Source of the DNA: Promethearchaeota archaeon
GTDB taxonomy: Archaea > Asgardarchaeota > Lokiarchaeia > Sigyniarchaeales > SOKP01
Reading direction: 5' to 3'
Assembly: GCA_019894855.1 (NCBI GenBank)
Contig: JAGXNS010000002.1
Location: forward strand, 8,858 to 72,857
Length of the DNA stretch: 64,000 nucleotides
Below, one piece after another: positions 8,450 through 61,425 of the stretch. Made by a program: the position numbers and the translations under genes. The notes beneath the pieces were generated by a model, which did not search any database, was not told the origin of the DNA, and saw only the letters and a program-made list of their open reading frames with translations. Positions within the stretch are counted from its first letter, which is position 1, and every line of letters starts with the position of its first letter.

Positions 8450-10257
8450 TACATGCCCCACCACGGGTGTTGCATCGATCTTTGGAGGATAATATATTCT
8501 CGTAAAGCTTGTTTTTGATCCACGGTTAATTCATCTAGGAATTTTCCCATGATCTGTCTCACGTGAGATTCTGGTACATTAACGAACAGAGTTTCATCTC
8601 TATCGATATCTCTCCCTATCTCAATGCCACGAATAGATATAGCTACTTCGTCATCTTTTACAGCTTTTTCTAAAGTTTTACCTTTATCCTGAATTTGGTG
8701 AACTCTTTTCGCTTTCTTTCCGTCAGCAGTGATTAACGTTACTTTAGGATATAAAGTACCCGCTTCCACATGTACTCCAAATACTGCGGGATCTGAATTT
8801 CTAAATATAAAATCGGGCATCATTCTTAGTTTAGCAGGTAAAACTAATTCGCTTAATCCTTTTGCGGTCTCCTCTGCTTTTCGTACCTCAGCATATTCTA
8901 TATAATCTTCCAACAGTCTATAAATGACATTATTCGTGAAAATTCTTATATTGTCTGTTATAGCTTGTTCTTTTGCATCGGGTAGAATAGCCACATTAAA
9001 TCCTAAAACGGTTGCTGAATATGGATCGAGACTTTTAACTAAATTTGCATTCATAATATCCTCTTTTTTAATCGGACCCACATCGGCAATACTTATCTTA
9101 ACACCATTCTTTGTGAAATGATTTTCTAACGCTTCAAGAGAACCTAATGTATCTGCTTTTAACACTACGCCTGCTTTGTCTGTTTTAATTCGAATACTTT
9201 CTACTTCTGATTCAATTTCGTTGTATACAGTTTCTTCTTGTGAAGGATCACCAATTCCTCTAAATGGAGATCCAGCAACAACATCTTCGATATTAGGAGC
9301 AAGAATCTTAATTCCAGCTGCTGCACTTACTATATCTACAGAATCAAATTTTTGTCTAGGATCTCTTATCTCATCTAAAGGTTTCGGCATGAGTAAAGCT
9401 CTTACTTTCGACTTAATAGGTTTTTCTAAACCGCCAACAATGAACTCTTCGCCTTTCTTGATTATTCCATCGTATATTAAGACATCCATAGTTACTGCTT
9501 GACCTTTTTCTTTCTTCACCTCCAAAACTACGCCTTTGGCGGGTCCTTCACTAAATTTCAAGTTTTCAGTTAAAAATTGTTGCACCAGTCCCATTAAAAC
9601 CATCAATAAAGTTGATATTCCCTCGCCTGTTTTGGCGCTCGTAGGTACGATTGCCACTTTTTTAGTAAAATCTTTTATTTTATCGTAACGATCGATTCCT
9701 GTAAAACCTTCCTGTAAGAAATCTATTCCTATTTGAATTAATTTTTCGTCAAGAAAATCTCTAACATGAGGTTTTTGTTTATTATATGAATCTAAAAAAT
9801 CAGCATCTTTAATAGATTTCCACCCTGTTATCCTATCGATTTTATTAGCAGCAATAACAAATGGCACTTTCCGCTCGCGTAATATTCTAACGGATTCCCA
9901 CGTAATTGGCATGTTCCCGGCTGTTACATCGATAACCAATATTGCTATATCTGCAACAGCCCCCCCTCTTTTACGCAAGTTCATAAAGGCGGCGTGTCCT
10001 GGAGTATCAATAATTAATATGCCAGGTAATTGAATTTCTTTTTCAGCAAATTCTTGCTTTGATTTCTTTAAGAAATCTTTTATATCTTTAGTGGGAAAAT
10101 AAGAAGCTCCAATATGTTGTGTAATACCAGCAGCTTCTCTTTGTTGCACTACGGTTCCTCGAATATAATCTAACAGAGAAGTTTTACCATGATCAATATG
10201 TCCTAAAATCGAAGCAATAGGAGCCCTTATAATTTTTTTATCGGTTTCAGCTGTCAA
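8449..10257 (-). CDS. infB: Translation initiation factor aIF5B (IF-2)
   Basis: GHIDHGKT, GITQHIGA, DTPGH, NKID, KADTLGSLEAL; TTG start. Confidence 0.96.
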   Translation of the reverse strand: MTAETDKKIIRAPIASILGHIDHGKTSLLDYIRGTVVQQREAAGITQHIGASYFPTKDIKDFLKKSKQEFAEKEIQLPGILIIDTPGHAAFMNLRKRGGAVADIAILVIDVTAGNMPITWESVRILRERKVPFVIAANKIDRITGWKSIKDADFLDSYNKQKPHVRDFLDEKLIQIGIDFLQEGFTGIDRYDKIKDFTKKVAIVPTSAKTGEGISTLLMVLMGLVQQFLTENLKFSEGPAKGVVLEVKKEKGQAVTMDVLIYDGIIKKGEEFIVGGLEKPIKSKVRALLMPKPLDEIRDPRQKFDSVDIVSAAAGIKILAPNIEDVVAGSPFRGIGDPSQEETVYNEIESEVESIRIKTDKAGVVLKADTLGSLEALENHFTKNGVKISIADVGPIKKEDIMNANLVKSLDPYSATVLGFNVAILPDAKEQAITDNIRIFTNNVIYRLLEDYIEYAEVRKAEETAKGLSELVLPAKLRMMPDFIFRNSDPAVFGVHVEAGTLYPKVTLITADGKKAKRVHQIQDKGKTLEKAVKDDEVAISIRGIEIGRDIDRDETLFVNVPESHVRQIMGKFLDELTVDQKQALREYIILQRSMQHPWWGM

Positions 10258-10426
10258 TTAAACTCACTTATGATTTATAATAATAGTAAAAATCTAATTA
10301 ATTCTCATAATTATAAAAGGTATAATATGATATAGATTTAACTAGAAATAAATAGATGTAATTAACTAATTGAGGTCTCTCTTTTGATTACAAAAGAGAT
10401 AGATACACTTATCATACTAATTTATC

Positions 10427-11173
10427 ATGTCTAAAAAAAGAAAAAAACGCGTAAGGCGCGGTCATCCAGTAGCTATCCTTATTGGTCTGCATGATAACGA
10501 TGCAGTACTTTGGAGAATATTCAGCGAGACTATTAGACTACACTTCAAAATAAATCGTGGAAGGAAGAGAAGAAATCAAAATAAAAAGCATATATTTCAT
10601 TTCCATGAGGAAATCATTAACGCATTAAGACCTTTAATTAAAGAGGGCATCAGAAGCGTAATATTGCTCTCCCCACCAAAAGAAGAATATTCAGATGAAT
10701 TTCTTAATCACGTTAATAAACATCATTCATGGTTATTAAAAAAGGGGAATAAAGGGGTTGTTTTTTCTAAGATCATAGCTAATCAGGCGAAGACTCAAAA
10801 GGATGTGTATTACCTAAAAACACAAGACTATTTTAAAGACATTGTGGGGGAAACTTCAAATCAAGAGGCTTTGCTGATACTAGAAGAATTGACGGAGGTA
10901 ATTAACAAAAATGAAAAGTTCTCAAAGATTCTCTATACATGGAGAGAAATCGATTATGAATTAAGACTTATAAGACAAAATCCTAATTTACCTAAGCCAA
11001 ATTACATAATTCTAACTGAAGAATATCTAAAAAATCCAAAGAATAGAAACAAAACACATCGAATTTTACAACTCGCAAAAAATCTTGAGATTAAAACTAA
11101 AATCGTAAGTCAAGAATCTGAGGCGGGTATTAGCGTAGAGAAATTTGGAGGAATAGTGTGTTATTTTAAATAA
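10427..11173 (+). CDS. Pelota/aRF1-like protein with middle and C-terminal domains only
   Basis: C-terminal IVSQESEAG..VEKFGGIVCYFK resembles the eRF1_3 end; middle domain pattern F.EEI...VILLSPP..F. Confidence 0.6.
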   Translation: MSKKRKKRVRRGHPVAILIGLHDNDAVLWRIFSETIRLHFKINRGRKRRNQNKKHIFHFHEEIINALRPLIKEGIRSVILLSPPKEEYSDEFLNHVNKHHSWLLKKGNKGVVFSKIIANQAKTQKDVYYLKTQDYFKDIVGETSNQEALLILEELTEVINKNEKFSKILYTWREIDYELRLIRQNPNLPKPNYIILTEEYLKNPKNRNKTHRILQLAKNLEIKTKIVSQESEAGISVEKFGGIVCYFK

Positions 11174-11227
11174 ATCTTCAATTAGGAGAAAATTACCAAA
11201 CTAAGAAATAAATTTATTAGAATTCTT

Positions 11228-14158: not shown

Positions 14159-16165
14159 TCACGATTTTATTTTATAGTCTTTCTTAATTTCTTTAATTTT
14201 ATCTCTTAAATAGGCAGCATCCTCGAACCGTAGCTCTTTGGCTGCAAGAAACATTTTGATTTCAAGATACTCAATTACTAAATCTTTATCTCCCTGTTTT
14301 TCTAAATCTTCAATCTTATCTTTAACATTTCTTTTTAATTTCTTTGTTTCTCTTTCCTTGAACTCATGTTCCTCAGAAAGCGAATTTAAGATGTTTTTCT
14401 TAATTGTTTGAGGTGTAATTTTAAATTTCTCGTTGTAATCTTCCTGTTTATTTCTTCTTCTATTTGTTTCTTCAATTGCTTCCTTCATAGCTCGAGTAAT
14501 TTTATCGGCATATAATATCGCTCTACCTTTTATGTTACGGGAAGCCCTACCAATGGTTTGTATAAGCGATCGCGTGTCGCGTAAGAATCCTAATTTATCT
14601 GCGTCCAGAATTGCTACTAATTGGACTTCGGGTAAATCTAATCCTTCTCTAAGAAGATTAATTCCCACTAAAACATCGTGAGTACCATCTCTTAAATGTC
14701 TTAATATTTCAAATCTCTCGACAGTTCCTACTTCGGAGTGTAAGTAAGCAACCTTCAACCCTAATTCAGAATAATACTCAGCAATATCTTCCGACATCCG
14801 TTTAGTAAGAGTGGTGACTAAAACTCTTCCTTTATTGGTTATAACTTTCCTTATCTCATCTAACAAGTCATCAATTTGATTTTTAGCAGGACGAATTTCC
14901 ACCTGAGGATCAACCAATCCAGTTGGTCTAATTATTTGTTCAGCAGATACTCCACCGCTCTTTTTAAATTCCCAACCTCCGGGAGTAGCGCTCATAAAAA
15001 TTATATGATTTATTTTTGCTTCCCATTCTTCAAAAGTCAAAGGCCTATTATCGTATGCGGAAGGTAACCTCCACCCAAAATCAACGAGGTTCTTTTTTCT
15101 TGATCTATCTCCCCCAATCATTCCATGAATTTGAGGAATCGTTATGTGACTCTCGTCAGCAACTATTAAAAAATCTTTTGGAAAATAATCAATTAAACAC
15201 ATCGGTGGACTCCCGGGTGGCCTGCCATCAAGGTGTCTCGAATAATTTTCCACTCCCTTACACCATCCCATTTCTCTCATCATTTCAAGATCAAATTTTG
15301 TTCTTTTTTCAATCCATTGGGCTTCGGCATATTTCTTCTCTTTCATGAATTTGGCTATCTGCTGCTCTAACTCTTCTTCAATTGAAATTAATGCCTTAGC
15401 TTTATTTTCTTCGGGTATAATGAAATGAGTAGCTGGGAATATTCTACAATTTGATAAATCTTTTAAAACATCATTAGAAACATAATGAATTTCTTGTATA
15501 GACTCGATTACATCTCCAAATAATGAAACACGAATTGCGTTGTTCAAATACGCTGGAAAGATGTCGATAATGTCTCCCTTAACTCTGACTATGCCGGGTT
15601 TAAACTCGATATCCTTTCTTTCATAGTTCATCAGGATTAATCCTTTTATTATTTCCTTCCTTTGAATAGTCTGACCAACATCAAGGTTCAGGGAAATATC
15701 GGTCCAAACTTTTGGATCACCAATACCATAAATACATGATACAGTTGCAACAATGATAACATCGTTCCTTGTTCTAATTGCATGAGTAGCAGCTAATCTT
15801 AATCTCTCGATTTCCTCGTTTACGCTGAAATCTTTTTCAATATATAATCCTGTCACAGGCATATAGCTTTCAGGTTGATAATAATCGTAGTAGCTAACAA
15901 AATAGTGAACAGCATTCTTAGGAAATAATTCTTTAAGCTCGTTATATAATTGGGCTGCCAGCGTTTTATTTGGTGCCATAACTAAAGTAGGTTTCTGAAT
16001 TTTCTGAATTATATTTGCAACAGTGAATGTTTTCCCCGTACCGGTAGCGCCTAATAGCGTCTGAAAGCGGTTTCCGTTTTTTATGTTACCGACTAGTTTC
16101 TTGATTGCTTCTGGTTGATCTCCGCTAGGTTTGAAACTAGATTCAATTTTGAAATTGGATATTAT
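14159..16165 (-). CDS. uvrB: Excinuclease ABC subunit B (non-canonical ATA/ATT start inferred)
   Basis: YYDYYQPE, DESH, UVR tail; frame continues about 60 codons upstream of ATG 15979 through FKPSGDQPEAI and Walker A GATGTGKT to TAA at 16169-16171; exact start 16162/16165/16168 uncertain. Confidence 0.92.
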   Translation of the reverse strand: MISNFKIESSFKPSGDQPEAIKKLVGNIKNGNRFQTLLGATGTGKTFTVANIIQKIQKPTLVMAPNKTLAAQLYNELKELFPKNAVHYFVSYYDYYQPESYMPVTGLYIEKDFSVNEEIERLRLAATHAIRTRNDVIIVATVSCIYGIGDPKVWTDISLNLDVGQTIQRKEIIKGLILMNYERKDIEFKPGIVRVKGDIIDIFPAYLNNAIRVSLFGDVIESIQEIHYVSNDVLKDLSNCRIFPATHFIIPEENKAKALISIEEELEQQIAKFMKEKKYAEAQWIEKRTKFDLEMMREMGWCKGVENYSRHLDGRPPGSPPMCLIDYFPKDFLIVADESHITIPQIHGMIGGDRSRKKNLVDFGWRLPSAYDNRPLTFEEWEAKINHIIFMSATPGGWEFKKSGGVSAEQIIRPTGLVDPQVEIRPAKNQIDDLLDEIRKVITNKGRVLVTTLTKRMSEDIAEYYSELGLKVAYLHSEVGTVERFEILRHLRDGTHDVLVGINLLREGLDLPEVQLVAILDADKLGFLRDTRSLIQTIGRASRNIKGRAILYADKITRAMKEAIEETNRRRNKQEDYNEKFKITPQTIKKNILNSLSEEHEFKERETKKLKRNVKDKIEDLEKQGDKDLVIEYLEIKMFLAAKELRFEDAAYLRDKIKEIKKDYKIKS

Positions 16166-16293
16166 AATTTAGACACCAAAATTTAAAGATTAATTAAAGA
16201 TGAAGTTAAACTTAATTTATAGACGATAGGTCTATAGATTTTTTAATGTAACATAGTTTATTTTTATTACTGTTATAAATAAAAAGTAAGGAT

Positions 16294-19200
16294 TTAAGTG
16301 GTAACGATTTCGTCGTGTATATCCTCTGCGCCTTCCTTGGTCCGAACTAAGATGTTTAAAATTTCGCCATTACTTACTAATCCGATTATAGTTTCAAGAT
16401 CATCCGTGCTGATCGTAAATATAATTGAATCTCCTGCTTCAATATCATAAGTAGCTACATCAAAATTACTCAACGAAATAAATGTATTATTAATGTAAAT
16501 GGATTCCACTGTAAGATTAAACAATCCTTCGTTGTCAATTTTTATATCAACAAAGCCGCCAATAGTGGCAGTCGTTTCAGTATCATCGATATTTATTTCG
16601 TAAAATGTTGAATCTACAAATACGGGAAAGTCCATGTTATATTGAGCAGAAGAGTTTGTAGTTATGTTTACATTAACAATATTAGTGGAATTTAACGCTA
16701 AGCCCGTGATATTGAAAGAAACTAAAGCACATTCTTGTATATCGAGAGTAATATCTCCATATTCAAATATTACATCGTTTGTAAAGGATAAGCTCGTTGT
16801 ACTATTCAGATATATTTTATCTAATGTAATCTCTTCATCTCCCGTGTTTTTGATCAAAATTTTGCCTGTTTCGTTAGCAGCTATAAAGGAAGCAACATGT
16901 CCTTCTACGGAATCAATGATTTCAATATCTGGTTTGTCTATAATTGTGTGAACAAATCCAATATCAGAAGCTTTGGTATCACCATCGAAATTCGCAGTCA
17001 CAATAATTCCTATCTCATCGTTTACTTCAATGCCTGTTAAATAATCTGAGGCTGTTATAGTAAGACTTCTTTCTTGTCCAGGATTTAAATTAAAGGCCCC
17101 AAAATTCAATATGGATGTCCAACTTGAAGAAGTAGAAAGATAAATCGAATCTAGTCCTAGTATAATATCTCCGGTATTTTTAACCATTAAGTTTACGTGA
17201 GTTGTTCCATTATCATAAGTATACGCAAATGTTTTTTCGAGATTAATTGGAACGTGATTTCGAAAATCAGTTTGTGTAGCAATTAATGCTTCTGGGGAGG
17301 CTATTCTGCTTTCTTCAAGAATAGAAATTTTAAACCCATCATAATTTGAGGTGAGTATTAACTCGTCTGTGATACCATTAGGGGTAGCTACGCCTATTTT
17401 GTGTTCAGTTCTTAATGGATAAAACGGATAGAGAGTATTTGCGATATTAACACTTGCTATTTGACCCGGTTCTAAAATTGGAGTTCCTGAAACATAATTT
17501 ATATTGTTGAGAGTATTATTTTCATTATCGATATAGAAATCTTTCAAGATTACTGTACTTAGTCCCGTGTTTTCAATTTCGAGATTTATTTCACTCAACG
17601 ACGAATCTATTTGAACGACATTACTGCTGATTTTATTAATCCTAATATCTCCTTCCCTAGCTTCTTTTACAAACAGATTGCTTGTATCGTTCGTGAAAGT
17701 GAAAGGTGAAGAATCAACTGCAATTGATTGAGCTTCTACTTCAATGTTTACCACATCATTTATTTCAAAAGAATTTCCACTAGATTTAATGTCTACCCAA
17801 ACTAAATCTTCCTCGTTAGAGTTTAATATATTTGTCTCGATACCTTTACCCAGGTTAAAATCGTAACTCTCACCGTTTATCTTAATATCGCTAATCGTTA
17901 AATCTTTTGAACCTGTGTTTTTCAATTTGAAAGTAGCATAACCAGTATCGAATACTTCTGGATTTTGTATTTGAAAACTAGATTCTAAAGCAGTATAATC
18001 AAGTTTGAACAATTTTACCATTCCATTTGTCGAGATATATGCGTACTTAAAAACATTGAATTCATATAATCCATCAATTGGTATATGTGTGGTATATGGG
18101 TTTCCTTGGTCGTCTGTTAATGTATTAACTTGACTTTGGTAGTATTCAGTAAATGTTTGGGGGTTATTAGGATCTGATGGAGGAGCTGTTGGATTTCCGT
18201 AGAACATTAATTTAACTAACTGACTTTGGAACCATTTTGAAGTGGGGCTTCCCGTGGTTGAGTTAAAATATTCATCTTCAACGAATACAGAATTCGAAGC
18301 CCAATTATCCTCTTCCATGCCATAATTCTTATAGCTCTGGTAGTTATCGTTGCAGATCCTTACCATCCAAGGCCATTTACCTTCATCCCCTCCTAAATTA
18401 GGATACAGCATTCCAAAATAGACTAAGACATAGTCTGCTTGTAACGCTCTAAACACTTTAGCACTATAAATCTCGTTTGTTTGCATCATTGCCATTCCTG
18501 TCATACCCATTCGAGTTTGGTTGATTGTTCCATTATCGTTAACCGTTGTCATGTTTCCTATGGGGGTTATCCAATAACCATAATCCCACCACGAGACAAC
18601 AACGGATGTACCAGGCAGATTTGTTTTCATCCATGTTAGAGTTTCTTCCCAATCGTGTATTTGTCCTCCTGGCGCCAATTGACTCTGCGACAGTTGAGTT
18701 AAAGCAATGTTAGAAGCGTGCATAACTTGAGCCATACACATAATCCCAACAATGAAATAAACAGCACCAATTTCAGATTTTCCAACCATCCGTTTTACTT
18801 GGCGCTTTCGTTTTCTACTAACACCTGTTCTTTTTTCTCCATAGAAACTGCCAAAAATTTTTAAAACATTAACTAATCCATATGCACCCACTAAGCATGC
18901 TGCGGGCGCAAATAATAATATTATTCGAATCATGCTGCCAGTAAAATAAAAAATCAAAAGTAAGAAAGTGAGTAATAGGATATCGGCGACATTAGCTCGT
19001 TTAAATAAGAAAAATAATCCAAGAGGTAAAAGAGTCAGAGGAATCAAAGTATTATAGTAAAACACACTCCATGAACTTGGCATATGTTCAGCCACGGAAG
19101 CTGTAACACTAATAGAATCTCTAATTAAAGGACTTAATACACTCACTAATCGTCCTCCGAACCCAAAAGGAATTAAATCTGGAGCAACCCATATAATAAC

Positions 19201-20166
19201 GCCGAAAATGGTGATTACGGGTATCAATGCCCACTTTATGGTGTTGATTAAACCATTATATAGACGAGAAAGTTTGTTTCTATTTGTATATAAAATATGA
19301 AATATGGCTAGAAAAATAGTAAAATAAAAAACTGCTCCAAGCTCCACACTAGTTAAGAAAGAACTATATGGGAATGTAAAACTTATAGCATAGACAAGTA
19401 ACCCAACTCCTTCGATTCCCGCATAGGCTATTAAAATATTAGAATCGTATTTCTTCAGTAAAATCATAATTGCAACTATAATAGGAAGAATTAAAAAAAC
19501 GAAGTTAAAACCTCCCCAACTTAAAGCTAAATAACCAGAAAAGATGCCACCTAAAACAGAATGATAGAATTTCCCTGTTCTCACTGTTTTAATAAAGAAA
19601 TAAAAAGCCATTAAAGCAGCAAAAACACCGATAGTTTCATTATCGAAAAACCCTGCCGTCGTTCGTTGCATGAAACCAGGGTTAAAAGCTAAAAAAAATG
19701 CAGCGACTAATCCGCATCTTCGATCGAGCGCTTCTTTCCCTACCAGATAAATAGCAAAAACAGATGCTCCCCCCATAATCGCTGGAAAAAAGTAACATAT
19801 ATCATATAAAGATATTGGAATCCCTATAAAATTAAAAGCTTGGTAAATTGCTACTACAGTGAAAGTTAGTCCAGGTCTAAGGGTCCCCCGGGAAAAACCT
19901 TCAGGAAACCAACTTTTTATGTCGTGCCAATTAAAGTATTCAAATACAGAATGCGTTGATAAATATTCTGCGTTGTAATATTGAATCCATGGGTCAAATG
20001 CTTTTATAAGGTAATTACCAGATATAATTGGTGAAAGTCTTATTAAAATGGCTAAAAACACAACTAAAAAGAGAGCTAAGAAAAACACGATGTTAAATGT
20101 TTTTACTGTTATGGTTGCTCTTGCGCGATCTCTGAAATTTTTTAAAGATGGGTAAATAAAGGACAT
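16294..20166 (-). CDS. aglB: Oligosaccharyltransferase AglB/STT3 with long C-terminal Ig-like extension
   Basis: AFDPW, FDNE, SVAEH, WWDYG, DNGT, DEGKWPWM; multi-TM N-terminal half. Confidence 0.93.
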   Translation of the reverse strand: MSFIYPSLKNFRDRARATITVKTFNIVFFLALFLVVFLAILIRLSPIISGNYLIKAFDPWIQYYNAEYLSTHSVFEYFNWHDIKSWFPEGFSRGTLRPGLTFTVVAIYQAFNFIGIPISLYDICYFFPAIMGGASVFAIYLVGKEALDRRCGLVAAFFLAFNPGFMQRTTAGFFDNETIGVFAALMAFYFFIKTVRTGKFYHSVLGGIFSGYLALSWGGFNFVFLILPIIVAIMILLKKYDSNILIAYAGIEGVGLLVYAISFTFPYSSFLTSVELGAVFYFTIFLAIFHILYTNRNKLSRLYNGLINTIKWALIPVITIFGVIIWVAPDLIPFGFGGRLVSVLSPLIRDSISVTASVAEHMPSSWSVFYYNTLIPLTLLPLGLFFLFKRANVADILLLTFLLLIFYFTGSMIRIILLFAPAACLVGAYGLVNVLKIFGSFYGEKRTGVSRKRKRQVKRMVGKSEIGAVYFIVGIMCMAQVMHASNIALTQLSQSQLAPGGQIHDWEETLTWMKTNLPGTSVVVSWWDYGYWITPIGNMTTVNDNGTINQTRMGMTGMAMMQTNEIYSAKVFRALQADYVLVYFGMLYPNLGGDEGKWPWMVRICNDNYQSYKNYGMEEDNWASNSVFVEDEYFNSTTGSPTSKWFQSQLVKLMFYGNPTAPPSDPNNPQTFTEYYQSQVNTLTDDQGNPYTTHIPIDGLYEFNVFKYAYISTNGMVKLFKLDYTALESSFQIQNPEVFDTGYATFKLKNTGSKDLTISDIKINGESYDFNLGKGIETNILNSNEEDLVWVDIKSSGNSFEINDVVNIEVEAQSIAVDSSPFTFTNDTSNLFVKEAREGDIRINKISSNVVQIDSSLSEINLEIENTGLSTVILKDFYIDNENNTLNNINYVSGTPILEPGQIASVNIANTLYPFYPLRTEHKIGVATPNGITDELILTSNYDGFKISILEESRIASPEALIATQTDFRNHVPINLEKTFAYTYDNGTTHVNLMVKNTGDIILGLDSIYLSTSSSWTSILNFGAFNLNPGQERSLTITASDYLTGIEVNDEIGIIVTANFDGDTKASDIGFVHTIIDKPDIEIIDSVEGHVASFIAANETGKILIKNTGDEEITLDKIYLNSTTSLSFTNDVIFEYGDITLDIQECALVSFNITGLALNSTNIVNVNITTNSSAQYNMDFPVFVDSTFYEINIDDTETTATIGGFVDIKIDNEGLFNLTVESIYINNTFISLSNFDVATYDIEAGDSIIFTISTDDLETIIGLVSNGEILNILVRTKEGAEDIHDEIVTT

Positions 20167-20354
20167 ATTTTTTCTTCTATATTATTGTTAAACGGTATAA
20201 TCGTTATGAAATTTAAAAGATTTTAAAACATTAAAAGATTGTTTTTTAACAAATTAATTAGTCTTGATATTTTAACACAAACAAAATTCAATTATTATAA
20301 AAATCCTATTTCAAGCATAAAATTATTAAAATTTTAATGCTGTAATTAATAGGA

Positions 20355-21212
20355 ATGGAAAAAACGAGGTATATCTTTAAATTCTATTACATAGGGTCGA
20401 AAAAATATCATGGCTCTCAACGCCAACCTGATTATTTAACTGTTGAAGAATGTCTATTGAGCGCCTTAAAGGAGCGAAAATATATAAAAGATGATAAGAC
20501 ATCGGGTTTCGAAGTAGCAAGCAGAACCGATAAGTACGTTTCAGCCCGTGGATCTACTTTTTCTTTTGAGACAGAAAAAAAACCTATTTTAATGGAGATC
20601 AATACAGCTCTCCCAAAAAATATAGGAATCTGGGGGTATTCCGAAGTACCAATAGATTTTTTATCAAGATACAATGCATTGTATCGACATTACAAGTATA
20701 TTGTTCCCTATTCAATTAACTTTCGTAGAAAAATAGCCTCAAATAACCTAAACGAAATGATTAAAGCGTGTAGAACATTTGAGGGAAGACACGATTTTAG
20801 AAACTTTTTCAAACCAGAGAAAGATAATGAAAAAACGATTAGAGACATTATGTTAGCATCTTTGAGATTAGACGGTGATTTCCTAATTTTCGATTTCAAG
20901 AGTCGGGCTTTTTTAAGACAACAAATTAGAAGAATGATTGCTAAAATCTTTGAACTTGGTTTAGAAATAATTACATTTGAAGAGTTTTTAGATTTATTTA
21001 ATCCCTCCAGAACTTACTCCTATCAACCCGCTGATCCCTTAGGATTAATTTTATGGGATATTAATTACGGAAAAAAAATGCAATTTACAATTGATGCCAA
21101 ATCAAAAGAGAGAATGAATAAATTCTTTCTGCGACAGGAAATTAAATTTTCAACCAAACAGAAATTATTCAGTCTTATGCAGCGTAACAATATTAGCGAG
21201 AAGGGCCTGTAA
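20355..21212 (+). CDS. truA: tRNA pseudouridine synthase A
   Basis: YHGSQRQP, ASRTDKYVSA, GRHDFRNF, FLRQQIRRM. Confidence 0.92.
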   Translation: MEKTRYIFKFYYIGSKKYHGSQRQPDYLTVEECLLSALKERKYIKDDKTSGFEVASRTDKYVSARGSTFSFETEKKPILMEINTALPKNIGIWGYSEVPIDFLSRYNALYRHYKYIVPYSINFRRKIASNNLNEMIKACRTFEGRHDFRNFFKPEKDNEKTIRDIMLASLRLDGDFLIFDFKSRAFLRQQIRRMIAKIFELGLEIITFEEFLDLFNPSRTYSYQPADPLGLILWDINYGKKMQFTIDAKSKERMNKFFLRQEIKFSTKQKLFSLMQRNNISEKGL

Positions 21213-22136
21213 TTGAATTTCTTCCGTGCCTCCTTGACTTAAGCGGTACTCGAACTCCGCAAGGATTTTAGTTAGCTCTATTTTTACATCTTCTGACACA
21301 TCTAAATCGTAAATTTCTCGATGTAAATTCTTAATGATATTTATGCCTGACAATCCATACTCTCTTGTTATATCATTTAACAATTTTAGTGAAAATTGTA
21401 ATTGCCCCTTAAGAGCTGTTTTAAGGACAACTCTGATCCGTTCGGGTGGGACTTCTCCAGCAACCCGGAAAACCACATCTTGGTCAATATTTTTAGAGAT
21501 TGTTCCGCATGATTGCAGGTAATTTATAGCTCTTCGGCAATCTCCCTTAGATACATCAACTAAAGCGTTTAAACCATCAGGGCTAATGCTTATGTCCTCT
21601 TTGCTAGCAACGAATTTGACACGGCTTTTAATATCTTCGTTTCTCAAAGATGAAAAGCGGAAAACAACGCATCTAGATTGGATAGGTGGAATAATTTTAT
21701 TAGAATAGTTACAAATTAATATCATTCTACAGTTCCGCGTATACTTTTCCATTGTTCTCCTTAAAGCCTGTTGGGCTGGTGCTGTCATATTATCTGCTTC
21801 ATCTAAAATTAGAATTTTAAAGGATATAATGGAAGGAGGTTTAGCTTTAGCAAAATCCTTGATATATGTTCTTATAACATCTATACCTCTAGCATCACTT
21901 GCATTCAGTTCTAAATATGTAAGATTAATTGCTTTTTTATTACCGTATAATTCTCTGACCATTGCTAATGCAGAAGTAGTTTTACCAGTACCGGCGGGAC
22001 CAGCGAATATAAGGTGTGGCATCGATTTATCCTTTACGAATTGCTTCAATCGTTTAATAATTCCTTCTTGGTTAACCACATCACCTAATAAGCGAGGTCT
22101 GTATTTTTCCACCCATGGTTTGTTTTCAACTGACAA
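21165..22136 (-). CDS. rfcS: Replication factor C small subunit
   Basis: PWVEKYRP, GPAGTGKT, ELNASDARG, DEAD, SRC; TTG start after GGTG. Confidence 0.96.
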   Translation of the reverse strand: MSVENKPWVEKYRPRLLGDVVNQEGIIKRLKQFVKDKSMPHLIFAGPAGTGKTTSALAMVRELYGNKKAINLTYLELNASDARGIDVIRTYIKDFAKAKPPSIISFKILILDEADNMTAPAQQALRRTMEKYTRNCRMILICNYSNKIIPPIQSRCVVFRFSSLRNEDIKSRVKFVASKEDISISPDGLNALVDVSKGDCRRAINYLQSCGTISKNIDQDVVFRVAGEVPPERIRVVLKTALKGQLQFSLKLLNDITREYGLSGINIIKNLHREIYDLDVSEDVKIELTKILAEFEYRLSQGGTEEIQLQALLANIVTLHKTE

Positions 22137-22253
22137 TGTAACACCAAATATAAATAGATTTACAAATAATAAATAAAAAAATACTATTAAGAATTAAAGT
22201 TTCTTTATTTATTATTATATACAACTTTAAAAAATGGATGAAGAAACGATACA

Positions 22254-23558
22254 ATGACAGATTATAAAATCACGAAAATTAAATCTCGATGGATTTTAGA
22301 TTCACGGGGAAACCCTACCGTCGAGTCTGACGTGTTTGCGGGAAAAACTTATTCAAGAGCTGCAGTTCCTTCTGGAGCATCAACGGGAATTATGGAAGCT
22401 TTAGAATTACGAGACGGAGGAGACGCTTTCTTGGGTAAACATGTTACTAGTGCAGTATCTAATGTAAACTCTATAATAAGTAATAAACTACAAGGTTTTG
22501 ATGTTCGAGAACAAACCAATATTGACGAGGAGATGATAGCAATTGATGGCACGGAAAACAAAAGCAACTTAGGTGCCAATGCAATACTTTCAGTATCTTT
22601 AGCTGTTTCAAAGTTAGCTGCGTATCTATCTGAGAAACCCTTATATTATTATCTCTACGAATTAGCATATGGAAAATCAAGGGAAGACTTTTTATTACCA
22701 ATACCGTCATGTAATATAATTAACGGGGGAGAACACGCTGGAAATGACTTAGCTATACAAGAATTTATGATTTTACCTATAGGTGCTGATTCATTTTCAA
22801 ACGCAATTCAAAATGTCGCAGAAGTCTATCAAAACTTAAAAAAGCTACTGAAACAGAATTATGGCGCTTCCGCAATTAATGTAGGCGACGAAGGGGGATT
22901 CGCTCCAAATTTATCGACAACTACGGAGGCTGTAGATATAATTATAGAAGCTATCGAAGCGGCAGGTTTTATGATGGGCACCGATTTCGTACTTGGAATG
23001 GACGCAGCAGCAAGTGAATTTTACGAAGATGGAATGTATAACATTGACGGGAAAAATCTCACAAATGAGGAACTAATGGAATATTACTTGAATTTAATAC
23101 ACGAATACCCATTTAAATCCATTGAAGATCCATTTGATGAGAAAGATTTTAGATCTTTTTCAAACCTAACAGCTAAGGTTGATAGATCGATCCAAATTGT
23201 CGACGACGATCTTACTGTTACGAATATAAAAATATTGAAAAGAGCGATAGATGAAAAAGCAGGTAATGCCTTATTACTAAAAGTTAATCAAATAGGATCC
23301 CTAACGGAAGCAATAAAAGCGGCTAAAATGGCATTTAATAGTGGGTTCAATGTAATGGTATCGCACCGTTCAGGGGAAACTGAAGATAGTTTTATTGCAG
23401 ATTTAGCTACAGGTCTTTGTACGGGACAAATGAAATCAGGTGCCACATGTAGGAGCGATAGAACCTGTAAATTTAATCAACTACTTCGCATAGAAGAAGC
23501 ATTAGGTTCTAAAGCAAAATACCCCAAAAAATTTGATTCGTGGAAGAGTTACATGTAA
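22254..23558 (+). CDS. eno: Enolase
   Basis: DSRGNPTVE, VPSGASTG, GDEGGFAP, KVNQIG, SHRSGETED. Confidence 0.97.
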   Translation: MTDYKITKIKSRWILDSRGNPTVESDVFAGKTYSRAAVPSGASTGIMEALELRDGGDAFLGKHVTSAVSNVNSIISNKLQGFDVREQTNIDEEMIAIDGTENKSNLGANAILSVSLAVSKLAAYLSEKPLYYYLYELAYGKSREDFLLPIPSCNIINGGEHAGNDLAIQEFMILPIGADSFSNAIQNVAEVYQNLKKLLKQNYGASAINVGDEGGFAPNLSTTTEAVDIIIEAIEAAGFMMGTDFVLGMDAAASEFYEDGMYNIDGKNLTNEELMEYYLNLIHEYPFKSIEDPFDEKDFRSFSNLTAKVDRSIQIVDDDLTVTNIKILKRAIDEKAGNALLLKVNQIGSLTEAIKAAKMAFNSGFNVMVSHRSGETEDSFIADLATGLCTGQMKSGATCRSDRTCKFNQLLRIEEALGSKAKYPKKFDSWKSYM

Positions 23559-23564
23559 TTTTTC

Positions 23565-24212
23565 TTAACTCTCTCTTTTTCTTTTAAATCTGTAAATATT
23601 TACATTAATTGATTTAGTTTTTTGTTTGTGAAATTGATATGTCTTACTAAGCTTCAAGTGATAAGGAAATACATAATCGATCTCCCAATTATATTTTTTT
23701 ACAAATGTCGAGATAAATTGGTGTACATTTGGATTTGCGAGATGTATCGAGTATACAACCTGTGAGATGTTAAACGCTTTCGCTAAAAAAAAGCGATCAG
23801 CAGTTTTTTTTTGGACTCCAAAAGGAGGATTCATAATAGTAGTAATAAAAAGCCCCTCTGGATTCACATTTCGAAAAAGTTCAAATTGATTTATATCAGA
23901 ACAGATAGGGGAGATAATAGATTCTAAACCGTATCTACGGATGTTATTTTTTAATATCTTTAAAGCATTGAAATCTATGTCTACACTTACTACATAATGA
24001 GCTTGGAGATACGCACACGCTATTGATAATCTTCCGGTTCCAGCCCCTAAATCCAAAATCAACCGGTTTTTAACGTCGTTAAATTCGACTCCTGCGAAGA
24101 AAACAATGTCGACAGCACTTTTTGCATCAATGCAATATTGTTCTAACTCTATAATAGGATTCGAAAATCCTTCAGTTTGCTGAAGTAACGATATTAAATC
24201 TCTCTTGTTTAT
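23565..24212 (-). CDS. METTL5-like RNA (adenine-N6) methyltransferase (ATA start inferred)
   Basis: DLGAGTG, NPPFG; frame extends upstream to (I)NKRDLISLLQQTEGFSNPIIELEQY, the family N-terminus, with no ATG/GTG/TTG before TAG at 24222-24224. Confidence 0.85.
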   Translation of the reverse strand: MNKRDLISLLQQTEGFSNPIIELEQYCIDAKSAVDIVFFAGVEFNDVKNRLILDLGAGTGRLSIACAYLQAHYVVSVDIDFNALKILKNNIRRYGLESIISPICSDINQFELFRNVNPEGLFITTIMNPPFGVQKKTADRFFLAKAFNISQVVYSIHLANPNVHQFISTFVKKYNWEIDYVFPYHLKLSKTYQFHKQKTKSINVNIYRFKRKRES

Positions 24213-24328
24213 CGTAATCGCCTAAAATCTGTTCTCCATAATATATTTTATGAAAAATTATGAAAAAATTTAATTATTTTAATTAATAATAATTAAATAG
24301 AGAAATTAAAAGATTTTTGTTGAAATTT

Positions 24329-24925
24329 ATGAAAGAATCTAAGAAAAATAATGAAATAGTTCTTACGGGTCAATATTTAGGTGTTGTAGAAGAATACTTA
24401 CCGGATAAAAAGTCTACTTTCGTAAGAGATGGCCAAATTTTTGCCACTAAAACAGGAATAGTCAGTATCGATAAACAACGAAGAGCTATAGAGATTAAAA
24501 GTCACCAAGACGAAGATCGAAAAATAGTAAAAATTAACGATATTATAATAGGAACGATTCAATTTCTAAGACTTTATTCAGTTGGTATTAGTTTTGCTAC
24601 TATCAATAATAAAATTCATTTTAATAGTTCTTACTTTGGCAATATCCATGTATCTAATATATCCCATAAGTTTATTGAAAAAATCGCAGATGCATATCAA
24701 ATTACCGATATTGTCAGAGCTAAAGTTATTAAGCAAGAACAAAATGAATACAGCTTGAGCACCGTAGGTAATGATCTAGGTGTTATCCATGCTGATTGTA
24801 GCATATGTGGATCAACTCTTGAGAAAATAGGACAAAATAAGTTGAAATGTTCACGATGTGGAAACACTGAAAATAGGAAATTAGCTAGCGATTATGGAAA
24901 TGTTAAAGAAAATCTAAGATACTAA
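24329..24925 (+). CDS. csl4: Exosome RNA-binding subunit Csl4
   Basis: V..G..LG..EEY, S1 domain, C-terminal CxxC...CxxC-ENRKLA Zn ribbon. Confidence 0.9.
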   Translation: MKESKKNNEIVLTGQYLGVVEEYLPDKKSTFVRDGQIFATKTGIVSIDKQRRAIEIKSHQDEDRKIVKINDIIIGTIQFLRLYSVGISFATINNKIHFNSSYFGNIHVSNISHKFIEKIADAYQITDIVRAKVIKQEQNEYSLSTVGNDLGVIHADCSICGSTLEKIGQNKLKCSRCGNTENRKLASDYGNVKENLRY

Positions 24926-24986
24926 ATCGGTTAACTTCTTTTTAATACATGTTTAGATGAATAGAAATAAACAATGAGGATTTATT

Positions 24987-25208: not shown

Positions 25209-25290
25209 AGATGCTTATCTAGTTATTGTTTTAAAACCAAAAAACATTTATTTAATTATAGATTAGAGAACTTAGTTTTGGTGGATTATT

Positions 25291-26292: not shown

Positions 26293-26294
26293 GC

Positions 26295-26855: not shown

Positions 26856-26862
26856 TAAAGTT

Positions 26863-47255: not shown

Positions 47256-47441
47256 AAATCTAAAATAACCTCAATTTTTGAATTAAAAAGATAAAACAAT
47301 AAAGAATAAGTTAACAAGTTCTGCACTATAAAAAAACTAAGCAAGCAAATATTAAAAATTTTTCGGATTAGACATTTTTTTATCTATTCTATTATTACTT
47401 TATATCAAGTAGTTTATTTTATAGATGTATTCACTCACGCA

Positions 47442-48053
47442 ATGATGAAGATAAAGTCGCTATTTAAAAGTAAATTAATGGTATTCTGCATTCAAATATT
47501 GATTTTACTAATATTCAGCGCTATATTTAATTATCAGATTCAAATTGATTTTGATTCGAGTACTGACCCTAGAGCAGGGGAGCAACAATTTATTATCCAA
47601 TTTCTTGCTAACTTATTTTTATATAACACAACTTTTGGTTTTTTATACATAAATTTTACATGGGTAATTGTTTCGTTATTACCTATTCTCATGTTTAACA
47701 ATTTCAGAAAAGCTTATTCAATGAATTTAGCAACTTTCTTTTTTCCTAATTTCTTTTTTTATGTTTTCTATTGGAGGTATTCAATAACATCCTTTAGTTC
47801 TGTTTTCCCAACTTTTTTAGTCGAAACTGTCGCGCTAGCAATTACACTCGTAATAATTTCCATAGGGTTGTCATTTGTCTTAAAATTAATTAGAAGTGAA
47901 GAAAAGAAAATAGATATAAAAGATATTGAATTAAAAAATAGATCAGAATGCCCTCAATGTGGAGCTAAATTCGATTCAAAACCAGAATATTGTTATAACT
48001 GTAATACTTATTTAAAAGAAGAATTAGGGGAAATAATTGGAAGCGAGAAATGA
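47442..48053 (+). CDS. Membrane protein with C-terminal zinc ribbon
   Basis: About 4 TM segments; CPQCG...YCYNC. Confidence 0.75.
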   Translation: MMKIKSLFKSKLMVFCIQILILLIFSAIFNYQIQIDFDSSTDPRAGEQQFIIQFLANLFLYNTTFGFLYINFTWVIVSLLPILMFNNFRKAYSMNLATFFFPNFFFYVFYWRYSITSFSSVFPTFLVETVALAITLVIISIGLSFVLKLIRSEEKKIDIKDIELKNRSECPQCGAKFDSKPEYCYNCNTYLKEELGEIIGSEK

Positions 48054-49491
48054 AAAAATGTCATTTGAACGATTGTTTAAACCAAAAAATGTTCTAATAT
48101 ATGATGCAAAACCCAAAATTTCGTTTTTTATAGATGGATTTATTAGACAAGGATACAATTTGAAAAATCTCTATCTCGTTTCTACTCAAGTTAAAGAAAT
48201 TTTAGGCATAAAATGTTTAAAATCTGTCGACGATGTTCCTGTTGATTCGATCGATCTCGTTATTTTATCCGTTAGAAGAGACAATTTGGTTAAGGAATTA
48301 TCAAACTTATTATCTCGTAAAATAATTAAGTTTATTCATATTTTTACAGCGGGTACTGGAGAATTTGACGAAAAAGGTGCTAATATTGAAAGGGAAATTA
48401 AAGAAATTCTTAATGCCTATTCCTCTACGAGAAGCATAGGTCCAAATTGTATGGGTTTGTATTGCCCACAAGGAAAAATAGCATATTACTCCTCTTTTCC
48501 TACCGAAAATGGGGATGTAGGATTAATTTTTCAGTCTGGAGATTTACATTCTAAGATGGTTAAGTTTGGTTCTCGAAGATACAATTTAAGATTTTCGAAA
48601 GGGGTTAGTGCAGGAAATTGCATTGATATTCAAGTTTCTGAATTATTACAATACTTAAATAATGACAATGAAACGCAAGTTATTTGCGTTTACTTCGAGG
48701 GTCTGCCTGTCTTACAAAAAAATGAAGGAAGAAGACTCCTAGAAGTATTAAAAAATATGAAGAAACCCGTGCTCTTTATGCGCGGAGGAAGAACTGAGAG
48801 AGGTCAGGCAGCAGTTTTAACTCACACGGGCTCCTTGGCTTCAAAAGGTAATATTTGGAAAGCAATTTTTAAACAGACGCCAATTATTGACGTTCCACCG
48901 TCTTTAGATGAGCTAATCGATTATACTTACCTATTTTCCAACAATATACAACATTATAAAGAAAGAAAGAAAGAAGTGAAGTATCCAAAATCAAAAAATG
49001 TTTTAGTAGTTTTATGGTCTGGTGGTTTTGGGATTTTAGCTACTGATATTTTAACTGAATTAGGACTGAACCTACCGATTATATCAGGAAAAAAATTAGA
49101 CGCCCTAAAACAGATATATCCTATTAGGGTTGGGAGCTTAACTAATCCTTTGGATATGCCTTGGATTATTTCAAGTAAGGTGTATTCGGAGGTTTGTAAG
49201 GCGGCGATAGATGATACTATCGATTTAGTATTGATAGTAACAGATGCTTGGAGAGATTTGGATGATGATAAATTTAAAAATTTTTATATCAATTTACTTG
49301 GAATTAGAACGCATGTAGAATCTTTAGATAAAATCTTTGTGATTATATTGCCGCAGTATCCTAGCGAATCACGGCAGATATTATCCAATAAATTGAAAAA
49401 TGATGGATTTCTCGTGTATGAATCAATAGAAAGCGCAGCAAGGTCGTTTTTGAAATTATATGAATATGGTAATAAGAGGAAAGTAGTTTAA
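48037..49491 (+). CDS. CoA-binding protein, NDP-forming acyl-CoA synthetase alpha-subunit-like
   Basis: GPNCMG, QSG, HTGSLA phospho-His motif, SGG.G, NPLD. Confidence 0.85.
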   Translation: MEARNEKMSFERLFKPKNVLIYDAKPKISFFIDGFIRQGYNLKNLYLVSTQVKEILGIKCLKSVDDVPVDSIDLVILSVRRDNLVKELSNLLSRKIIKFIHIFTAGTGEFDEKGANIEREIKEILNAYSSTRSIGPNCMGLYCPQGKIAYYSSFPTENGDVGLIFQSGDLHSKMVKFGSRRYNLRFSKGVSAGNCIDIQVSELLQYLNNDNETQVICVYFEGLPVLQKNEGRRLLEVLKNMKKPVLFMRGGRTERGQAAVLTHTGSLASKGNIWKAIFKQTPIIDVPPSLDELIDYTYLFSNNIQHYKERKKEVKYPKSKNVLVVLWSGGFGILATDILTELGLNLPIISGKKLDALKQIYPIRVGSLTNPLDMPWIISSKVYSEVCKAAIDDTIDLVLIVTDAWRDLDDDKFKNFYINLLGIRTHVESLDKIFVIILPQYPSESRQILSNKLKNDGFLVYESIESAARSFLKLYEYGNKRKVV

Positions 49492-55624: not shown

Positions 55625-56149
55625 CTAGGGTTTATATTTTTCAAAAAGAGTCTCAGTTATCACATCAAATGACTTCTCAACATTTTGACCCGTCTTAGAA
55701 GACAATTCTATAAATGTAGATAAATTATATTTTTTAGCAGCTAAAATCCCTTCCTCTCTTGTAACAGCTCGGAATTCCTTTAAATCTACTTTAGAACCAA
55801 TTAGCATGATGGGGATATCTCCAGCATGTTCTCGGATGATTTGAGTCCAATCAGGTAAATGGTCCAAAGACAGCCTATTAGTAATGTCATATAAGAAGAA
55901 GGCAGCGTTAGCTCCTTTACAGTATTGATGTAAGAGAAATCTAAATCTTTCTTCGCCACCAAAATCCCAAATTTGTAGTTTTACTTTTTTCTCTCTATGG
56001 GTTGTAGTTTTTGAATAAAAGTCTACTCCAATCGTGAGTTTCAAATCTTGTAGGAAAAAGCCCGAAATATACCTTAATGTTAAGGAAGTCTTCCCAACAG
56101 CCGCATCCCCCAACATCATTATTTTCCAAGTGTAATCGTAGCTTGCCAA
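55625..56149 (-). CDS. Rab-like small GTPase
   Basis: GDAAVGKT, TIGVDF, IWDFGGEERFR, SKVDL, SSK. Confidence 0.92.
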   Translation of the reverse strand: MASYDYTWKIMMLGDAAVGKTSLTLRYISGFFLQDLKLTIGVDFYSKTTTHREKKVKLQIWDFGGEERFRFLLHQYCKGANAAFFLYDITNRLSLDHLPDWTQIIREHAGDIPIMLIGSKVDLKEFRAVTREEGILAAKKYNLSTFIELSSKTGQNVEKSFDVITETLFEKYKP

Positions 56150-60557: not shown

Positions 60558-60721
60558 ACCAACCACTCTTATAATTATTTCCTATTCTGAAGTGCATAAG
60601 ATATTATTTTTAATATATTCCTTTTTTAACAAGGATTGCTCATTAAAATTTAAAACAATAAGAATTTATAAATTCTTCGTTGTTTAATACGCTTTTAAAA
60701 AAATATATGGCATATTTATTT

Positions 60722-61087
60722 TTAAGAAGATTTAAGTTCTTCTATTTGCGCTATAAGATCTTGTAATTGTTCATCGTTTAACGATTTTCCAGTAAAGCTT
60801 TTCTCTAAGAGCATTCTAAGTTCTGGAACTGTGTGTGGATCAATGTTTACAATGGTTATTGCGTAATTTTCTTCGATTTCGTATTTTTCAATTAACAATT
60901 TCTGAACTTTTATCGCATCTTTTTCACTCATTTTAGCAAATTTGTTAACATAATTATAAGTAATTTCTTGAAAGTGAGATAAACCTTCTTCACTGTCAAT
61001 TTTTTCGATTTTCTCCTTGACAGCTTCCATAATTTTTTTTACTTCTGGTATAGAAACAGTTTTTTCATTAATTTTTCGTCCAGACAT
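60722..61087 (-). CDS. rpoF: RNA polymerase subunit F (Rpo4)
   Basis: Y..KFAK, IVNI.P.T..ELR; synteny with rpl21e. Confidence 0.88.
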   Translation of the reverse strand: MSGRKINEKTVSIPEVKKIMEAVKEKIEKIDSEEGLSHFQEITYNYVNKFAKMSEKDAIKVQKLLIEKYEIEENYAITIVNIDPHTVPELRMLLEKSFTGKSLNDEQLQDLIAQIEELKSS

Positions 61088-61119
61088 ATATTTTTTCTCC
61101 CCTTAAATTGATAAATGCG

Positions 61120-61425
61120 TTATTTGGCTGAACCTTTATTAGAACGTAAGTGTTCTTTGCCAATGATAAGAAGTTTCTTTGAATTGCCTAATTTAACTTC
61201 AACTTCGTAGCACCTTCCTCTTACACCCTTAACAGTTCCGGTTTTTCCATGATATCTCCTGTGAGGAAATCCTCTTTTATGCTGAGAAGAATCAGTAATA
61301 ACATCTACTTTGTCATTTATTTCATAATCAATTAAATATTTCTCAATGGATCCTAAACCTCGGTCTCTTACATTTTTTCGGTGTCTTTGGCGAGATTTGT
61401 TCCGGTAACCTTTATGTAATGTCAA
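61120..61425 (-). CDS. rpl21e: 50S ribosomal protein eL21
   Basis: GYR.KSR, PHRRYHGKTG.V, EHL; TTG start. Confidence 0.95.
   Translation of the reverse strand: MTLHKGYRNKSRQRHRKNVRDRGLGSIEKYLIDYEINDKVDVITDSSQHKRGFPHRRYHGKTGTVKGVRGRCYEVEVKLGNSKKLLIIGKEHLRSNKGSAK

Follow-up and report, generated by a model that had tools for sequence, protein, structure and literature searches.

The window examined here is a 64,000-nucleotide stretch of an Asgard archaeal genome (G000, a Promethearchaeota archaeon; contig C93, positions 8858–72857), in which several genes, including those for UvrB and the ribosomal protein eS27, have no usable canonical start codon (ATG, GTG or TTG) and appear to begin at ATA. 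Comparison with orthologues makes it quite probable, in our judgement, that in the genus to which G000 belongs roughly 3–6% of the protein genes are translated from near-cognate codons, a class in which we include ATT, ATA, ACG, ATC and CTG; AUU and AUA would be the commonest of these, with ACG, AUC and CUG used as well, and initiation would be led by a Shine-Dalgarno (SD) sequence under a low level of aIF1-dependent discrimination. The features in question lie between the TTG start of infB (10257) and that of the eL21 gene (61425), and the Asgard-type genes of the window include those for small GTPases, eS27, eL44, eL21, aIF5B, RFC and primase.

G000 is a 2.54-Mb draft of 170 contigs (84% complete, 5% contamination, 32% G+C), and 10-base runs of N break its assembly on contig C113, just upstream of the aIF1 gene, and on several other contigs. 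The DNA for homology comparison came from three genomes of the same genus, G018 (535 kb), G017 (190 kb) and G008 (320 kb), or 1.05 Mb in all. Further comparisons used G038, from another family of the same order, and G066 and G052, each from another Asgard family (31% and 49% G+C respectively); 400 kb of E. coli K-12 were passed through the same pipeline as a control.

The stop-to-stop open reading frame (ORF) of uvrB (14159–16168, minus strand) reaches its first ATG, GTG or TTG only at codon 63, past the Walker A motif (GATGTGKT), and the Pfam helicase domains of this frame begin at residue 13. The proposed coding sequence (14159–16165) starts at an ATA (16165–16163) with a GGTG SD core (16174–16177) 8 nt before it, in a region that reads GGTG tc TAA ATT ATA ATA TCC. 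We obtained 30 orthologous loci from 40 relatives, 29 of which contain the anchor motif. At the start column G000, G002 and G008 read ATT ATA ATA, G011 reads ATT GTG ATA, G015 and G012 read ATG ATA, and G017 and G005 read ATG ATT; because the GTG of G011 and the ATG of four genomes share its column, the ATA at 16165–16163 is orthologous to a canonical start codon. In a different family of the order, three genomes belonging to a single genus have GGGGGA ATA TTT ATT AAG in uvrB, one of them without any canonical alternative, and their relatives have ATG GTT AAA. The UvrB entry in a public protein collection (an exact sequence match) is a 606-residue protein that starts at an internal methionine and is missing Walker A, so that the expectation of the sequence-only reading of this DNA, namely that standard gene callers miss or truncate such genes, is borne out.

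The eS27 ORF (36989–37207, minus strand) contains no ATG, GTG or TTG anywhere, and the Pfam S27e domain occupies residues 18–71. Its start region reads TAA AGGTG TTATATT ATA CCA AAA, with the putative ATA start at 37195–37193 (coding sequence 36989–37195) and the AGGTG SD (37203–37207) 7 nt before it; the gene adjoins eL44 (37208–37489) and lies downstream of it. In the 24 of 30 loci that are readable, six genomes have ATA and 18 have ATG CCN AAR in the same column, the ATA genomes having AGGTG 7 nt upstream and the ATG genomes mostly weaker motifs. A third gene, encoding a protein without a Pfam family (30042–30497, minus strand), would start at the ATA at 30497–30495, with GTGAT (30508–30504) 6 nt before it; the sequence ATA CCA AAC TGG is kept in all six aligned genomes, four of which have no canonical codon nearby.

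The gene for a METTL5-like methyltransferase has an ORF at 23565–24221 (minus strand) whose first canonical codon is a TTG at codon 53, within the methyltransferase fold, and orthologue columns place its start at an ATA (24212–24210; coding sequence 23565–24212) or at an alternative ATT (24218–24216). No SD was found upstream of this start. An in-frame TAG (24224–24222), preceded by ATG GAG AAC AGA TTT, lies just upstream, and in five close genomes the whole region reads ATG GAG AAC AGA TTT TAG GCG ATT ACG ATA AAC. This arrangement raises the alternative that a canonical start is hidden, either because an upstream ATG, GTG or TTG is used and the intervening stop is read through or decoded as selenocysteine or pyrrolysine, or because editing of the mRNA supplies an AUG, through a C-to-U change in ACG or an A-to-I change that makes AUI of AUA. 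Editing of ACG to AUG occurs in plant organelles; in G015 a CAG replaces the TAG, making the upstream ATG usable, and G000 uses TGA as a selenocysteine codon in a SelD gene. However, the upstream ATG is an ATA in G012, G009, G021 and G005 although the TAG stays; G012 has a GTG between the ATT and the ATA, the other three have the ATT, and in G017 a TAA is followed by an ATG that occupies precisely the ATA/ATT column. A further five genomes lack any upstream canonical codon. In uvrB, eS27, eS19 and most other genes the SD overlaps the stop or immediately precedes it, with no in-frame start farther upstream, and deamination cannot make ATG from ATT, ATC or CTG. We therefore regard a hidden canonical start as very unlikely to explain these genes. 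As a separate observation, the codons before the METTL5-like gene (24222–24240, minus strand) form an in-frame six-codon mini-ORF, ATG GAG AAC AGA TTT TAG, in the five close genomes; it could be a relic of an old start or a regulatory upstream ORF.

The sequence-only reading had singled out three strong ATA starts (uvrB, the METTL5-like gene and eS27) and a weaker one at 30497. All four have held up: none of them has a usable canonical codon, the ATA of the first three sits in the canonical column of sister species, and that of the fourth is kept in every genome aligned. Conservation between genomes, on which the case had been staked beforehand, is thus found for each of them, as a conserved ATA or as a match in column. 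This bears directly on the possibility that the ATA and ATT codons are sequencing or assembly errors, or mark pseudogenes of a draft metagenome-assembled genome. The fragmentation, incompleteness and contamination of G000 speak for such an artefact, as does the fact that a single G-to-A error turns ATG into ATA; but the same ATA recurs in three (uvrB), six (eS27) and six (ORF 30042–30497) species-level genomes, the ATT start of aIF1 described below is found in 22 loci, the affected ribosomal-protein genes keep intact conserved frames, and the E. coli control gives no signal. Because the ATA is either conserved or in an ATG/GTG column of sister species, sequencing error is excluded for the four window cases, and for the phenomenon as a whole we attach practically no weight to it. 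When contigs of four DNA runs were compared with positions 17301–37300, none of the differences listed (40, with 1449 further) fell on a start codon, which carries no weight either way.

To gauge extent beyond the window we used a statistic, d, based on ORFs that have a long in-frame open stretch before the first canonical codon, the null being taken from both shifted frames of those sites. In G000, 114 ORFs have d of at least 30 (39.7 expected) and 60 have d of at least 40 (8.9 expected). A codon-usage coding score for the same kind of stretch separated coding from non-coding sequence poorly and was dropped. Homology mapping by reciprocal best hits was possible for the 318 G000 genes with an orthologue in G018 or G017 and an upstream stop; in 44 of them the alignment begins 6 or more codons upstream of the first canonical codon, and after the alignments had been read 18 were accepted, so that 5.7% of testable genes need a near-cognate start. 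Three of the 18, uvrB, the METTL5-like gene and ORF 30042–30497, lie in the window. A mapping of this kind had been suggested for counting ATA and ATT starts; carried out on G000 against G018, G017 and G008, it yields a wider spectrum that takes in ACG, ATC and CTG.

Among the accepted genes, one for a 1163-residue P-loop protein on contig C88 has ACG in both G000 and G018, with AGGTGA 9 nt upstream, and an ACG in a membrane protein gene aligns with ATG in G017 and TTG in G018. In gcvT a single column holds ATC (G000), ATT (G017) and ACG (G018), with AGGTG 8 nt upstream, and in the gene for an Snf7 (ESCRT-III) protein a CTG stands in the column of ATG (G017) and GTG (G018); the latter gene lies about 7 kb past the window end (C93 79861–80554, plus strand) and its first canonical codon is 75 codons into the frame. 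ATT is aligned with ATG in three accepted genes and in eS19, and in two genes G000 shares its ATA with G017 or G018. Canonical codons come late in eS19 and eS28, the first being codon 129 of 168 and codon 67 of 85 respectively. Pfam supports the identities given, and its profiles start 3–9 residues from the proposed start in eS19, GcvT, RuBisCO and a GFO/IDH/MocA oxidoreductase. We note that the RuBisCO large-subunit homologue (C66, from about 4570, plus strand) has an apparent ATT start after AAGGTGA, its Pfam N-terminal domain running from residue 5 and its first canonical codon lying 20 codons past the ATT. Among the 26 flagged genes that were not accepted are two ORFs flagged only by runs of N and an ORF on C117 (from about 11299, plus strand) that opens 'TGA SCKLG...' and is conserved from the first codon in G008 and G018; on the basis of its motif we take this ORF to be selenophosphate synthetase (SelD), with the in-frame TGA as selenocysteine, and it was set aside as a start-codon case.

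Adding eS27 to the 18 accepted genes gives 19 validated starts, and GGTG lies 6–9 nt upstream (mostly 7–8) in 13 of these. At the same distance GGTG precedes only 29 of 1527 first canonical codons that are ATG (1.9%), 22 of 467 that are TTG (4.7%) and 9 of 278 that are GTG (the Fisher test of validated against canonical starts was run with 12/19); these rates show that the weaker codon is more often behind the strongest SD. A similar picture emerges when in-frame codons at least 4 codons before the first canonical codon of G000 ORFs are scored for GGTG at 6–9 nt. The motif precedes 28 of 922 ATT, 5 of 85 ACG, 9 of 740 ATA, 3 of 240 ATC and 1 of 54 CTG codons, and 35 of 11826 of all other codons (Fisher p = 2e-18 for near-cognate against other codons), ATT being the most frequent near-cognate genome-wide. 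The count corresponds to about 40 excess sites, which when scaled by 13/19 amounts to roughly 3% of ORFs, and it is because homology gives 5.7% and the GGTG count about 3% that we put the share at about 3–6% of genes. The anti-SD sequence is deduced from motif enrichment alone, since the G000 assembly does not include a 16S 3′ end. The presence of an SD in most cases argues against leaderless initiation; the METTL5-like and aIF1 genes, each with an AT-rich box resembling TATA some 25 nt upstream, might be either SD-led or leaderless.

Two independent statistics were computed for each genome: the number of ORFs with d of at least 30 against expectation, and the frequency of near-cognates behind a strong SD against that of other codons. 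By both measures the trait is strongest in the genus of G000, with 114 against 39.7 expected and 47/2043 against 44/11847 in G000, 24 against 5.6 and 14/406 against 7/2403 in G018, 6 against 0.7 and 4/140 against 4/762 in G017, and 7 against 2.1 and 6/197 against 4/1220 in G008. It is present at a lower level elsewhere in the order (G038, 10 against 3.0 and 5/200 against 7/1321), and perhaps at a lower level in other Asgard lineages: G052 has 19 against 18.4 and 8/195 against 26/2015 (p = 0.008), and G066 has 11 against 8.3 and 3/213 against 7/1635 (not significant), with ATT behind an SD in 3 of 61 cases. The E. coli segment gives 25 against 21.2 and 1/241 against 24/2252. Because G066 shows no excess at 31% G+C, AT-richness alone does not yield the signal, and because the E. 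coli control is flat, neither does the method.

These comparisons also address the view that a few non-canonical starts occur in every prokaryote and that nothing here is particular to the lineage beyond AT-richness. NCBI translation table 11 does list ATT, ATC, ATA and CTG as starts. The mild SD-linked enrichment in G052 is in keeping with such a background, as are the 8 of 35 aIF1 loci without a canonical start in other families (see below) and single known cases such as the AUU of infC (in the part of PMC4705826 available) and a proposed ATT start of an Asgard tubulin (likewise from part of PMC13394414). Against this, 18 of 318 genes is orders of magnitude above the known handful of E. coli, and neither the AT-rich G066 nor E. 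coli shows the excess, so that ordinary background seems to us a very improbable account of the G000 data.

The genetic code and the initiator tRNA of G000 appear ordinary. The 2733 internal ATA codons align with isoleucine in 61% of cases, leucine in 12%, valine in 12% and methionine in 2%, and because this profile is that of ATT and ATC, AUA is not reassigned to methionine. The initiator tRNA gene (C149, about 5074–5190, plus strand) has A1:U72, GGGCTCATAACCC, a GGG/CCC anticodon stem with three G:C pairs, and a CAU anticodon, and so lends no support to the suggestion that an altered initiator tRNA is responsible; anticodon and anticodon stem match the consensus in the one gene examined from an incomplete tRNA set. 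An intron of roughly 36 nt interrupts the T-loop of this gene, which ARAGORN mis-models as an 81-nt tRNA. It could nevertheless be that dedicated decoding operates, in which a second initiator-like tRNA (with anticodon UAU or GAU, for instance) or a modified C34 reads AUA or AUU as cognate; a modified C34 lets mitochondrial tRNA-Met read AUA, ARAGORN finds only about 14 tRNAs in the draft with or without its intron option, and third-position variants (ATT, ATA and ATC) dominate the spectrum. However, the sole initiator tRNA found has canonical features, a change in third-position wobble would leave ACG and CTG starts unexplained, and ATG, GTG, TTG, ATT, ATC and ACG interchange in single columns among sister species, which fits one tRNA with mismatch tolerance. 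Dedicated decoding is therefore highly unlikely in our estimate.

The gene for aIF1 itself appears to belong to the class. Of the 24 family loci, 22 (18/18 in the genus, g1, and 2/2 in each of the sister genera g12 and g13) have no canonical start before the zinc knuckle, and all 18 genus loci read AAAGGTTGTGA AAA AAG AGT ATT AAA GAC ... ahead of it. The arrangement GTGA-N9-ATT is kept in both sister genera though the nine intervening bases differ. The two remaining family loci, one in a fourth genus (g14) and the other a second gene copy, use GTG, as seen for example in G080. A canonical start is lacking in 2 of 12 loci in the rest of the order and in 8 of 35 in other families (one spurious ORF having been dropped), where leaders such as AGGAGG-N9-ATA and AGGTG-N7-CTG are found and where G069 starts at ATA; the families with near-cognate aIF1 starts are f1, f6, f11 and f17, and the non-canonical share for aIF1 is thus far above the genomic rate. 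In the genus loci a TTG TGA stands in frame immediately ahead of the ORF, a further point in favour of a hidden start with readthrough, but G089, in a sister genus, has TTG TGA TAA and would need two stops to be read through, and g13 has no in-frame start-stop at all and still keeps GTGA-N9-ATT. Separately, among the aIF1 loci of G076, G055 and G094 (L174, L176 and L286), two sister genomes read GAGGTTGA ATG ACA ATA, with the ATG 3 nt after the SD, and in the third an ACA replaces that ATG; in all three, aIF1 could actually start at the ATA that lies 9 nt past the SD.

An altered aIF1 had also been put forward as a cause of permissive initiation, and here the findings are divided. The aIF1 residues tested in Pyrococcus abyssi lie in loop 1, as far as the available part of PMC6237735 describes them, and loop 1 (RRKWGK) is conserved in G000. 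Relative to 36 sequences from other Asgard families, the protein does carry three substitutions (G to F, L to A, C to S) at sites conserved there to 97% or more, and all three are shared with the sister family f2. The G000 aIF1 also has the lowest full-length SUI1 score in the phylum sample, 52 bits against 70–86 for the best-scoring 30 loci, and its gene starts at ATT.

How such initiation might work can be outlined. SD/anti-SD pairing would hold the near-cognate codon in the P site, where the ordinary CAU initiator tRNA would pair with one mismatch, falling in the third position of AUA, AUU and AUC, in the second of ACG and in the first of CUG, and the lineage would tolerate this mismatch because aIF1-dependent discrimination is set low. 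In the accessible portion of PMC4705826, aIF1 is described as rejecting AUU in Sulfolobus, IF3 as autoregulating through its own AUU, and eIF1 as doing so through a poor start context. By analogy we infer that aIF1 may be autoregulated through its own near-cognate start: since the AUU follows GUGA at a constant and somewhat extended spacing, more aIF1 would be made whenever discrimination dropped, as for the AUU-initiated infC, and this loop could set the level of permissiveness. More tentatively, and with the odds in our view against it, the family as a whole might keep the stringency of initiation deliberately low by means of the aIF1 feedback loop, the near-cognate genes forming a regulated class. 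If so, the aIF1 level would settle at the point where near-cognates behind a well-positioned GGUG SD work efficiently, and the class moving with aIF1 activity would include ribosomal proteins, DNA repair, ESCRT-III, RuBisCO and aIF1 itself. It would also be a third independent instance of the infC/eIF1 autoregulation logic, in the lineage closest to eukaryotes. The permissive phenotype proposed by the sequence-only reading is thus supported, being conserved, SD-guided and far commoner than in the E. coli control; the cause sketched above is a proposal.

Several points weigh against this interpretation. Six of the 19 validated starts do not have GGTG at 6–9 nt, and three genes, the METTL5-like gene, the ORF at C117+6666 and the gene with CTG, have no SD at all. 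The exact codon is ambiguous in the METTL5-like gene, where either the ATT or the ATA may be the start, as well as in eS28 (ATC or ATA) and C117+6666 (ATT or CTG). The acceptance of 18 of the 44 flagged genes was a matter of the author's judgement of the alignments, with the remaining 26 rejected or left ambiguous, and frameshifted or broken genes in a draft that is 84% complete can also add to the d-excess. The SD signal of G052 comes without a d-excess, and the trait may therefore be broader and less lineage-specific than the d statistic suggests. Finally, the link between the aIF1 start and permissiveness is weak across the few genomes compared, in that G038 has an ATG-started aIF1 and yet shows 10 against 3.0, and the ATT-started G008 shows a similar 7 against 2.1.

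Many window genes, core functions among them, appear to start at TTG, and here the earlier proposal is only partly upheld. The aIF5B gene (infB; 8449–10257, minus strand) has its TTG (10257–10255) right after a stop, with ATG in or next to the column in four relatives. The RFC small subunit gene (rfcS; 21165–22136, minus strand) has TTG in G000 and G008 and ATG in the same column in G015, G012, G017 and G018, and the gene for an RpoL-like subunit (25291–25779, plus strand) has TTG in G000 and G008, GTG in G015, G012 and G017, and ATG in G018. For a small GTPase of the Arf/Roc/Ras type (26863–27339, minus strand) TTG is found in five of six genomes, and a Ras-family small GTPase gene (55625–56149, minus strand) has TTG in G000 and G017 and ATG in G018. 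The primase large subunit gene (priL; 33720–34988, minus strand) has two in-frame TTGs, the downstream one common to G000, G015, G012 and G017, and in the eL21 gene (61120–61425, minus strand), with TTG in G000 and G017 and GTG in G018, the Pfam L21e profile runs from residue 1. Pfam matches lend support to all of these starts as well. Orthologue alignment also backs TTG in ORFs 38583–40574 and 48037–49491. These starts are real, but TTG usage is not distinctive of the lineage, because by a naive count TTG is the first canonical codon in 469 of 2277 ORFs in G000, and equally or more often in G066 (71 of 337) and G052 (118 of 344).

Three other window ORFs were considered as non-canonical cases and set aside. 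At 47310–48053, 44 open codons precede an ATG, but that ATG start is conserved; those codons (47310–47441, plus strand), which precede the ATG of a zinc-ribbon membrane protein, are conserved in both G000 and G015 and absent from G012, G017 and G018. The ORF at 37545–38570 (plus strand) is by Pfam an aspartate/ornithine carbamoyltransferase, not priL, and does not provide a proven ATA start, its codon-34 ATG lying 11 residues before the Pfam domain and the stretch before it being unconserved in G018. The upstream ATA (37590) is conserved in five genus members and the frame opens exactly there in G015 and G017, so that ATA and ATG are equally good candidates. At 7832–8530 the conserved stretch before the start overlaps the 3′ end of infB and is uninformative.

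SD-led initiation at near-cognate codons is known in kind, and it is the frequency here and the use on essential genes, aIF1 included, that are unusual. Bacterial infC, encoding IF3, resembles the aIF1 gene (22 of 24 family loci) in being a fidelity-factor gene with a lineage-conserved AUU (PMC4705826, in the part available); but aIF1, with its SUI1 fold, is unrelated to IF3, and the same codon class appears to serve dozens of genes here and few in E. coli. Eukaryotic near-cognate initiation uses the same codons (CUG, ACG, AUU, AUA and AUC) with one mismatch to Met-tRNAi, and eIF1, like aIF1, has its own weak start (same source and portion). In eukaryotes, however, scanning and Kozak context select the codon, whereas here an SD at 6–9 nt would do so, and here the near-cognate would be the sole start of essential genes (eS19, eS27 and eS28) and not that of an alternative isoform or upstream ORF. 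Canonical archaeal SD-led initiation shares the GGAGGUGA-type SD, the spacing window, the initiator tRNA features and the factors (aIF1 and aIF5B were found), and differs in its narrower codon set and in that here the strongest SDs are preferentially tied to the weakest codons. For the Kariarchaeaceae AtubA (Sci Adv 2026, PMC13394414) a truncated Asgard annotation was similarly rescued by an upstream ATT suitably spaced from a ribosome-binding site; in the available portion of that paper this is a single-gene methods remark (a 'likely' rare ATT) concerning another Asgard class, and that portion holds no comparative, genome-wide or mechanistic analysis. In the literature that was searched we came across neither a systematic treatment of near-cognate starts for the Asgard archaea nor a mention of aIF1 starting at a codon other than AUG, although supplements may hold such notes.

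For annotation the consequences are immediate. Gene callers of the Prodigal and GeneMark type accept only ATG, GTG and TTG, and would miss eS27 altogether and reduce eS19 to a 38-codon remnant; distortion follows for protein families, for completeness estimates from marker genes and for claims of gene absence in Asgard genomes. The rule of GGUG followed after 6–9 nt by a near-cognate codon is directly usable for re-annotation. Because some 3–6% of genes, essential ones included, appear to use near-cognates and because aIF1, the homologue of eIF1, itself appears to start at AUU, the lineage offers a comparative handle on how start stringency is set and how it evolved toward eukaryotes.

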